Source: a virus
Lineage: Duplodnaviria > Heunggongvirae > Uroviricota > Caudoviricetes
DNA: 4,444 nucleotides
IMG/VR virus record: IMGVR_UViG_2537561506_000014
Strand: one strand, 5' to 3'
In this document: in pieces, positions 1 through 3,000 of the stretch
Layout: each line of letters begins with the position of its first letter
Position numbering within the stretch: position 1 is the stretch's first letter
Made by a program: the position numbers

Positions 1-3000
1 TTTGAAAAATATAATTTTATTTCATCCTCCTGGTCACTTTGGGGCACGTCTGGGGCACGGGCATTAAGGACATTATTCAACATGGCAACCTGAGTCACGC
101 TGCACTCAGGCATCCATGCACCATAAACATTGTAGACCATGCTGGCGCTGGAGTGCCCCATCTGTGATGCAATAAATGTCGGGTTTGCTCCGGCAGATAA
201 AGCCCAGCACGCATAGGTATGGCGTGACTGATACGCTTTACGGGATCGGATACCCGCTCTTTTTATTGCTGAATCCCATGTCGCTCCGATGGAGCTTACC
301 GCGTAGTTAATACCCGCCTTGTGATTCTTGCGAACGATTTGCGGACAGAAAACAAAAGTGCACTCGTGCAAAATTGTTCTTCCGTACTCGCGTAATTGAA
401 CAGTGATCTGATGCTGCCTGCTAAGACGAGTAAGCATCGCCTGGTTTTTAAGTGCTTCAATTGCTGGTGCCAGAAGATGTATAACCCGGTTAGTGCCTGC
501 GTCGGTCTTTGGTAGCGTAAAATCACCTATTTTTGTAAAATTTCGTCGCACTGTTATCGTGCCAGCTTTCAGGTCGATATCCTCCCATGCAAGTGCGGCA
601 ATTTCACCGTGTCGCATCCCTGTAAAAACAGCCACTGTCCAGAGGTTTTTGGTCTGTTGATGATGGCAGGCATCAATGAGACGGCTAAACTCATCTCTGG
701 TCAGTGGATCCGGCACTGGTTTTGATTTCCTCAGCGGTGTTATTGAATTAAAGGGGTTTTTCTCCAGATACCCGTTTTCGGCGGCAAAGCTGAACATTCC
801 GGCTGTTGTTGTCATGTAATAGTTCACTGTGGGTACGGTTCTTCCTTTTCGGGACGTGCTGGTTTTCCTGCTTCCCTTTTCCCCGGTCAGTAAATCTTTC
901 CTGATAAACAGCAGATCTTCTTTTGTAATCGATGACGCCAGCCTGCCAGGACCAAGCCTCGGTAGCATATTTTTCATCACTGATTGATAACGATTTAAGG
1001 CGTTACTACTGATTTCCATTACTTTCAGAGTAAGCCATTTCTGTGCCAGTTCACCGACGGTGATATCTTTTTTTACCAGGCCAAATAGCTTCAGGTTAGG
1101 TGAGTCAGGGAATCGATCGGCATAATCAAACGTTCCTGTTCTGATTGCAAAGCAGACCGAAGCCCTTAACTCACCAGCGATCTTTCTGTTTTTCGGTGTA
1201 TCGGGCACGCGAAGATTTTCGCGCACTCGTTTACCCCTGTACTTAAACGTTATTCGGAGTTTTCCTCCGTGATTTTCAACGCCGGCTGGATAGGCTGAAT
1301 TCGCCATTGTTCCTCCTGCGTCCAAGAGCACGCTCAGGTTATACTCTTATGGACAAGAATTAAACATCCTGAGATGGTAAGGGTTGGTTTTTGATCCAAG
1401 TGTTGATGGTAGGAAGATGATAGAGACATTCGCTGTTTTTCTTTGGCGTTCCGTCGGGGGCGATTTGTTTATATTCTCTGCCGTTCATCCACGCACTGTC
1501 CCTGGCGCGTAATATTGTTCCTTTTCTCAGGCCTGTTACAGCCATTAAAAGCTCCAGTGTTACCCATTCATTCGCATTTATCTGTACAACAGGTGTGATG
1601 ACTGGCTGAATGCCATGGTTATGTTGGTTTACTAACTCGCGCATAAGTTGCCTCTGCATGTGTAAGAAAAAACCGCCCGAAGGCGGTTGTCAGTTGATTG
1701 ATGTACGGCGCATTTTTCGAAGGCTGGCAATATGCTTTTCCTTCTCAATTTCCGCTTTAATCATATGCAGTTCGTTGTGCTCGATTCGCTCAAATTCTTC
1801 ATTAAATGCACCAATTGAAGTGGCTCTGGTTCTGCCGTCGAGCCTTCGGTAGATCACCTGAGTCAGAGTTACCTTGCATATTTCTACCGGATAGTTGTTG
1901 GCATCAACGAAAGACTGCCCGCGCTGGATCAGGACGAACACTGGTTGTATTCCTTGAGTGCCATATCATAAACACGGCATGCCGAGAGGTGTGTTGTAGT
2001 CAACGTCGTTCGTATCCTGAAAAGTCCATGTGTTGTGACGGTAACTTCCGGGGCTTTGAGTTTCACTGCATCAACGATATGCTGATGTTTGCGGCTTTCG
2101 AATATAGAGCTGGAGATAACCACACTTGCTGTTAAACCGTAACTTTCAAATGTGATTTTCATGTCATTATCCTCGCAGTTAGCCGGGCAACAAAAATAAA
2201 TAATGTTGTTCCTGCGAATAACAGGATACCGCCCGTCATTAGAGAAAGGAAAAACAATATTAATGTACGCGGGTTGTTTCTCAAAATATTCTCTCTGTGA
2301 TTCGCTCACTCTGACAATTCGTTGATCAAGTCACGGTATTTATTCAGTTCTTGCAGCGCCTTACATGCACCCTCCCATCGTTTCTGTTTCCGCCCGGCGC
2401 GACGCGCTTCTTTCCGTGATTTACGTAGCAGGTCACCTATAATGTTGTGCTGCACTGGCTGCACTGGCTGCACTGGCTGCACTGGCTGCACTGAGGCGAT
2501 ATTTGGTTTTTTGTCCACTTCCCTTGCAACTGCCTGCCAGATGTCATTTTTTACAGTTACTACCCCCTGGTTTTTTAACTTCCATAGAGTGTCAATAACG
2601 TCATTCAAATCAATATTGAGACCTTTAGAAATACTTTCGGCTGATGCTTTTCCTAATTTGTTCAATTCTGTGAGCACTGCGTTCATTTTTTTCTCCTGAT
2701 ATTTTAATGTCGGTGGGGCTGTTATACGGTTGGTGAGGTGTCAGCTTCTTCTACCAGCTTTTCCAGTTCATCCAGCTTGCGGGAAAGAATTTCACCAAAC
2801 AGATGAAGTTCTGCATCTGCTGTAATCGGGATTGGAACAAATCGTATTCCACTTCTGGCAAGTTGCAGGTTAGCCACGGTTAACCTCCTGCGGCGGTTCC
2901 GGTAGCGGCATCCAGTGTGTGGCCTGTTCAATACCATTACCATCAATACCATTACCAGGCGCAACCGTTATCTGCCCACGCCGAAAGGTGCTTCCTGTAT

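Follow-up and report, generated by a model that had tools for sequence, protein, structure and literature searches.

The intrinsic terminator that lies directly ahead of the excisionase gene (xis) in this Shiga-toxin-type prophage most likely works as a functional stop at the end of the last accessory cassette in the leftward early operon, being read through in an N-dependent manner and insulating xis, a reading to which we assign a probability of roughly three in four.

The stretch of DNA analysed, hereafter the window, spans 4,444 nucleotides, and its coding capacity lies entirely on the minus strand. Positions 1-3679 share 99.5-100% identity with Stx1a and other 933W-like prophages inserted at wrbA, such as that of E. 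coli UTAK-12, and by these matches the window is the left end of a 933W-like (Shiga-toxin-type lambdoid) prophage at wrbA. After position 3679 the sequence diverges from these close relatives and its last 765 bases match other prophages, so that the window is a mosaic; no full-length match to it was found in the collections searched. The genes and intergenic segments around the terminator are as follows.

1-1307, minus strand: tyrosine integrase gene (int), start ATG 1307-1305, with the Pfam domains Arm-DNA-bind_2 and Phage_integrase, annotated by RefSeq in the identical UTAK-12 prophage.
1308-1359, minus strand: xis-int spacer of 52 nt, whose sequence carries the int Shine-Dalgarno GGAGG.
1360-1644, minus strand: xis, encoding a 94-aa excisionase of the DUF1233 family (Pfam PF06806, E = 1e-30), start ATG 1644-1642.
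1690-1941, minus strand: DUF4222 gene, 83 aa (Pfam PF13973, E = 2e-15), stop TGA 1692-1690.
1929-2162, minus strand: 77-aa ORF that overlaps the DUF4222 start by 13 nt.
2256-2317, minus strand: cluster of weak sigma-70-like matches (9/12) within the 143-nt gap upstream of the 77-aa ORF.

The stop codon of int falls at the prophage/wrbA junction, about 4 nt past the window's left end, and the Xis protein additionally matches PDB 2KVV, a "putative excisionase" (E = 1.6e-6). Given their 13-nt overlap, the 77-aa ORF and the DUF4222 gene probably form one co-translated bicistron, which the terminator closes. The other accessory genes in the window are of the DUF1627, DUF1382 and DUF551 types. Between the DUF4222 stop codon and the xis start, the following elements are arranged in the direction of transcription.

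1671-1688, minus strand: terminator hairpin AACCGCC-TTCG-GGCGGTT, 7 bp with 5 G-C pairs, a UUCG loop and a folding energy of -11.3 kcal/mol.
1664-1670, minus strand: U-tract TTTTCTT, followed by ACAC; together with the two T of the 3' arm it gives 8 T in the 9 nt after GGCGG.
1657-1659, minus strand: upstream in-frame ATG, not the xis start, followed by CGG AGG TAA in the related contigs L032 and L033.
1651-1655, minus strand: xis Shine-Dalgarno AGAGG, 6 nt before the ATG at 1644; it reads GGAGG in the L032/L033 variant.

On the minus strand, the 5' arm AACCGCC (1688-1682), the loop TTCG (1681-1678) and the 3' arm GGCGGTT (1677-1671) follow one another without interruption, TTTTTTCTT stands directly after GGCGG, and one spacer base (1689, C) separates the DUF4222 stop TGA from the 5' arm. 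The hairpin thus occupies the intergenic gap after a stop codon, in the orientation of the flanking minus-strand genes, and because no T-run follows the stem on the opposite strand, the terminator should be unidirectional. A consensus scan ranked it as the top terminator in the window (7 pairs, 5 G-C, 4-nt loop). Under stricter criteria, requiring 5 consecutive G-C pairs, a loop of 3-6 nt and 7 or more T among the 8 nt that follow, it is the single site found in the window, against a mean of 0.0015 per window in 2000 dinucleotide-preserving shuffles. Both its anatomy and this rarity bear out the initial annotation, which had placed an intrinsic terminator immediately upstream of xis; judged by its sequence, the element is a genuine Rho-independent terminator, from which we infer that termination takes place in vivo. 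Since a 7-bp stem at -11.3 kcal/mol is only moderate, termination at the hairpin may be incomplete.

The segment that separates the terminator from xis is short. Between the ATG at 1659 and that at 1644 the minus strand reads CAGAGGCAACTT, and the earlier listing of the ATG at 1659 as a possible xis start has to be given up, since L032 and L033 carry an in-frame stop after the upstream ATG and retain the ATG at 1644 with its Shine-Dalgarno, and since the RefSeq excisionase start is the equivalent of 1644. The spacing given for the two codons, about 5 and about 20 nt from the end of the U-tract, was correct, with 4 nt to 1659 and 19 nt to 1644. Those 19 nt hold only the ribosome-binding site, so that no promoter fits between the U-tract and xis, as had also been claimed.

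In lambda, elongation complexes modified by N pass intrinsic terminators over many kilobases, and it is in this way that transcription from pL gets as far as xis and int. The lambda terminators tL1, tL2 and tL3 are classical intrinsic signals in the pL operon, at which unmodified polymerase stops and which N overrides; the hairpin of the window would share their mode of action and is not homologous to them. The initial annotation transferred this logic to the prophage and regarded the terminator as an antitermination-dependent gate on excision functions. The genetic setting on which such a gate depends is present in relatives: N and nutL are annotated in 933W, and the closest sequenced relative (L001) contains an intact 127-aa ORF 100% identical to 933W N, of which PGAP lists only a fragment. 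In the same relative the 240 nt upstream of N do not differ from those of 933W and take in the segment that carries the nutL annotation there; this nutL region lies 7.8 kb upstream of the hairpin on the same strand, and an unbroken array of minus-strand genes extends from the immunity region as far as int. The window reaches only to 4444, which is 2.8 kb upstream of the hairpin, so that N and nutL are seen in the relatives alone.

By this comparison, the initial inference is sound for this phage family, and the terminator is probably read through only by N-modified polymerase. An unmodified polymerase arriving from upstream would release its transcript in the U-tract, at about 1664-1670, leaving xis and int untranscribed; upon induction, a polymerase started at pL and modified by N at nutL would ignore the terminator and transcribe xis and int. 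The part of the gate proposal that needs changing concerns the transcripts on which the hairpin would act. The strongest terminator-like sites on that strand between N and int in L001 are a pair just beyond the gene that succeeds N (22470-22411) and the present hairpin, and pL transcripts made without N should stop at the terminators just downstream of N. As such transcripts would already end near N, the specific job of the hairpin is more likely directed against N-independent transcription, and its own contribution would probably be to insulate xis from transcription that starts inside the lysogen's exo-xis region independently of N. We infer this insulator role, since the sole candidate for such a promoter, the cluster at 2256-2317 that could possibly serve the 77-aa ORF/DUF4222 cassette, is a chance-level match: sigma-70-like matches of 9/12 number 7 in the window, against 6.9 expected.

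The initial annotation had further supposed that, as in lambda, int alone is made from a pI promoter inside xis, a supposition for which we found no support. Neither a cII box of the form TTGC-N6-TTGC nor the TTGC-N6-TTGT form used by this phage family occurs upstream of or inside xis, and the relaxed pattern TTGn-N6-TTGn is absent from the minus strand between 1300 and 1800. As a control, the family's pRE cII box TTGCTGTAACTTGT (TTGC-N6-TTGT) was located in L001; exact TTGC-N6-TTGC occurs neither in the prophage part of L001 nor in the left arm of 933W. Inside xis, where candidate int-only starts lie near 1505 and 1466, there are two sigma-70-like matches, only 8/12 in quality, and the xis-int spacer (1308-1359) contains no promoter match of 9/12 or better. 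A lambda-type pI arrangement, in which a cII-activated int promoter overlaps the xis start, thus has no sequence support in the window. The two genes themselves, which overlap in lambda, are 52 nt apart in the window.

The terminator nonetheless has a counterpart in lambda that is closer than the initial annotation supposed, a hairpin at about 29112-29130 in the same position, being the final pL-operon element ahead of the excisionase gene. In the 933W type, the match to the lambda sequence directly before pI and xis is almost complete over the hairpin, the U-tract and about 55 nt of flank upstream; in lambda the hairpin leads straight into TTGCGTGTAATTGC, the cII boxes of pI, after which comes the lambda xis ATG. 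The lambda hairpin and that of the window are identical in the 3' arm GGCGG and the U-tract, and they differ in the 5' flank (an orf55-like ORF in lambda, DUF4222 in the window) and in the loop (UGAU and UUCG, respectively). They also differ in what follows: in lambda the pI cII boxes begin inside the U-tract and lead into lambda xis, whereas in the window the U-tract is succeeded by an unrelated 19-nt leader and the DUF1233 xis, without a cII box.

The lambda hairpin and its Phi24B equivalent correspond to the ARNold predictions t5-lambda and t3-Phi24B in Table 4 of Bloch et al. 2014 (PMC4195576). The Phi24B hairpin t3 is identical to that of the window (AACCGCC-TTCG-GGCGG) and lies behind the same DUF4222 gene, directly before the excisionase (PMC4195576); after GGCGGTTT, however, Phi24B continues with a different U-tract, TTTATTAT, an unrelated xis of the HTH_17 type and an int that is inverted and has a promoter to itself (PMC3064807). 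The Phi24B papers on lysogen expression and on int/xis make no mention of a terminator or of the expression of the genes beside xis, and the lambda GenBank records NC_001416 and J02459 contain no terminator features in this region. The classical lambda tL3 was also considered as a homologue and rejected, the CRIM-plasmid fragment labelled tL3 carrying GAGGCTGGGTATTTCCCGGCCTTTCTGTT, a different hairpin that equals t1 of Bloch et al. (PMC4195576) at the exo end of the exo-xis region. For a role as insulator, PMC11658703 describes a terminator in the conjugative transposon Tn916 that guards the mobile element's genes against premature expression by transcription coming from upstream, antitermination being what overcomes it. 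The role proposed here would be analogous, in a different element, host and antitermination system. Term-seq data have been described for strain Sakai, with deposition in GEO (PMC7547250), and the Sp5 prophage of Sakai contains the 933W-type junction; its xis is identical and lies at 1395-1676 in NC_000902.1, with the hairpin some 25 nt upstream. With the identical Phi24B hairpin and the lambda counterpart already predicted in 2014, and with a textbook mechanism, the terminator as such is known biology of low novelty.

Comparison of the junction itself across phages adds a modestly new point. A query of 161 nt across the hairpin was searched against phage records, 42 of which match it over its whole length. 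About 40 further records, including Phi24B, 75/02 Stx and many Stx2a phages, match the DUF4222 gene and the hairpin only, up to GGCGGTTT, and about 50 others, among them 933W and VT2-Sakai, match only from the 3' arm of the hairpin into xis. At 97-99%, the DUF4222 gene and hairpin are shared with Phi24B, 75/02 Stx and many Stx2a phages, in which other modules come downstream: Phi24B continues with an unrelated HTH_17 excisionase and an inverted int, 75/02 Stx with another HTH_17 ORF and another int. That the gene and the hairpin move together into these two phages, and that the stop codon lies 1 nt before the stem, agrees with the earlier view of the terminator as the end of the upstream cassette. 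Conversely, 933W has the same xis preceded by a different gene, L0063, and by the hairpin AAGCCGCC-TGAT-GGCGGTT, the 3' arm and U-tract of which are the same as in the window. The window resembles a recombinant, with a DUF4222-type 5' half and a 933W-type 3' half.

Scans of viral contigs extended this pattern to the lambda-type hairpin, whose flank upstream stays constant while at least 6 different modules follow it downstream: lambda pI with xis, the 933W xis, an AlpA/HTH_17-like gene with a P4-type int, a Phi24B-like xis with an inverted int, a class with a 114-aa gene, and one further type. In the 114-aa gene class (L208), the gene is inserted after the lambda-type hairpin, and a second, different terminator lies directly before lambda pI and xis. 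Meanwhile, the DUF4222 hairpin is joined to 4 or 5 downstream modules. The breakpoint always falls right after the U-tract, a T-rich tract is retained in every junction class examined, and the first gene downstream is usually an excisionase, of differing family (Exc, DUF1233, HTH_17/AlpA-like). Across these junction classes, the terminator is a fixed landmark where accessory-gene modules meet several unrelated xis/int modules. Identity of the hairpin alone is no evidence of homology, as the UUCG-type 19-mer AACCGCCTTCGGGCGGTTT, found in at least 120 viral contigs and 105 distinct upstream contexts, has a T-rich tail behind it in 108 of 110 unrelated contexts and is thus a generic terminator sequence.

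The arrangement does not follow the xis family. A protein search with Xis returned near-identical proteins only, and a contig scan yielded a single 455-bp contig; distant relatives were therefore taken from tblastn against phage records. In none of 12 distant DUF1233 xis-int modules (including Fels-1, Gifsy-2, phiP27, BP-4795 and WGPS2, together with Klebsiella, Yersinia, Aeromonas and other coliphage modules) was a terminator found within 200 nt upstream of xis; several of these modules have an xis that adjoins the ORF before it or overlaps with it. In BP-4795 a DUF4222 gene is present as well, and still no terminator separates it from xis. It follows from the 12 modules that the arrangement is not required for control of xis, and, by these modules and the BP-4795 case, the terminator is a feature of the accessory region's 3' edge in lambda- and 933W-like coliphages and not of xis.

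The same comparisons allow a different account, in which the hairpin is mainly a junction relic, a common boundary where accessory-gene modules recombine with int/xis modules by microhomology (CCGCC...GGCGGTTT); it would end the upstream cassette and have no selected role toward xis or int. All mosaic breakpoints coincide with the hairpin or its U-tract, the window itself looks recombinant in its two halves, and the same xis family occurs elsewhere without a terminator, all of which this account would lead one to expect. A boundary of this kind would not explain why the stem is maintained by compensatory changes. Upstream of lambda pI, seven variants of the hairpin occur, with double changes from C-G to A-U and from C-G to U-A and single changes from G.U to G-C or A-U. 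In an alignment of nine variants, namely these seven plus the hairpins of the window and of Phi24B, 93.7% of cells are compatible with stem pairing, against 29-59% in slid controls; three of the seven pairs change on both sides, and the covariation score was reached by 0 of 500 shuffles. This points to selection acting on the hairpin itself, in a sample that is small and in which the UUCG-type rows may be convergent rather than homologous. Besides, the U-tract is T-rich in all classes, and the L208 class has its second terminator directly before pI and xis. We consider a relic without further function improbable, and the recombination history that it describes is compatible with a functional terminator and does not exclude one.

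A second account takes the hairpin and U-tract mainly as an RNA 3'-end element that stabilises the DUF4222 mRNA or marks out a 3'-derived small RNA bound by Hfq. Hfq-binding 3' modules typically consist of a stem-loop with a U-tract behind it, and prophage-encoded small RNAs with such 3' ends are common in EHEC (bioRxiv 10.64898/2026.05.13.724894). Against this, a stop codon 1 nt from the stem leaves no 3' UTR body, and the conservation upstream is explained by the coding region. No relevant Rfam family was matched, and the 91-nt context folds no more stably than its shuffles (z = -0.75), so that nothing here points to a riboswitch-like role, to a small RNA or to a larger regulatory structure around the xis ribosome-binding site. 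We regard such an element as very unlikely to be what the hairpin represents. Finally, a chance inverted repeat without function might be entertained on the grounds that weak hits are common (8 terminator-like sites in the window under a loose scan definition, against 4.8 expected), yet this is effectively refuted by the shuffle test and the covariation, the site being of a quality expected 0.0015 times per window, placed exactly in the gap after a stop codon and conserved.

A functional terminator that closes the accessory cassette may also have been favoured for a second reason. It is possible, although we hold it only tentatively and consider it somewhat doubtful, that short GC-rich hairpins of the form CCGCC-loop-GGCGG plus U-tract have been selected twice in the lambdoid phage pool of E. 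coli, once as insulators of xis against N-independent transcription in lysogens and once, through the stem and U-tract that they share, as microhomology linkers for the exchange of xis/int cassettes. If so, such dual selection would explain why at least 5-6 unrelated recombination modules begin within a few bases of the same terminator, and the swapped xis/int cassettes would amount to swapped integration-site specificities between phages.

For the prophage itself, the significance of a terminator before xis lies in the stability of the integrated state. Were Xis to leak in these Stx prophages, they would excise at the wrong time or be lost. Insulation would carry most weight in relatives such as Phi24B, which produce Int constitutively from a promoter of its own and leave the decision on excision to Xis alone (PMC3064807). 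In this sense, the terminator plausibly helps to keep the toxin prophage stably integrated until induction.

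In some lambda-like phages, a gene of unknown function encoding 114 aa lies between the lambda-type hairpin, the terminator that directly precedes pI/xis in lambda, and pI/xis itself, as in the following contig:

3850-4340 of L208 (IMGVR_UViG_2740892422_000004), region of the 114-aa gene insertion and second terminator, also found in contigs L202, L296 and L338

The phages carrying this insertion have a different, second terminator, GCCGCA-TCAA-TGCGGC followed by a T-run, directly 5' of the cII boxes, and in the L338 variant its stem carries a compensatory change from C-G to U-A. 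In Shigella phage 75/02 Stx (NC_029120.1), which shares the DUF4222 gene and the hairpin with the window, the 261-nt DUF4222-int "gap" holds an unannotated ORF starting MDSHSITLKEACQFLKISRP, at about 2605-2830, whose start is likewise directly 3' of the terminator. This ORF, also present in contig L129, matches HTH_17 with E = 7.5e-9 and is probably the excisionase of the phage.

The sole match to the window's E. coli phage Xis in genome contigs, at 96% identity, falls outside E. coli, and is probably a contamination of the assembly in which it occurs:

NZ_JPLE01000249.1, 455-bp contig, Xanthomonas pisi DSM 18956 assembly

At the prophage end, the int coding sequence and the annotated coding sequence of wrbA share 4 nt (13997-14000 in the UTAK-12 prophage record, corresponding to the left edge of the window), so that the 3' end of int extends into the attachment-site junction. 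The right end of the window, 3680-4444, diverges from the UTAK-12/Stx1a prophage type, while other E. coli prophages match this segment, with its hypothetical and DUF4014 genes, at 99.9%; no full-length match to the exact mosaic of the window was present in the collections searched. Over the whole of 1-3679, close prophage relatives differ from the window in length by 9, 18 or 27 nt, differences which, taken across that entire interval, suggest that the copy number of a 9-nt unit varies among related prophages. This unit, CTGCACTGG on the plus strand, occurs in five tandem copies encoding (VQP)n within the following gene:

2306-2686, minus strand, DUF1627 gene containing the 9-nt tandem repeat at 2447-2491

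The E. coli UTAK-12 prophage record (NZ_CP168981.1) also contains, at 23104-23487 on the minus strand, an intact ORF of 127 aa with 100% identity to the antiterminator N of 933W, where the RefSeq/PGAP annotation gives solely a pseudogene fragment of 69 nt, labelled "regulator, missing N-terminus". In the same record, the pRE-like cII site of the window's phage family is TTGCTGTAACTTGT (26673-26686, minus strand), with TTGT as its second box, and an exact TTGC-N6-TTGC is found neither in the prophage part of the record nor in 933W over its first 16 kb. Searches with the lambda motif would therefore overlook cII-dependent promoters in these prophages.
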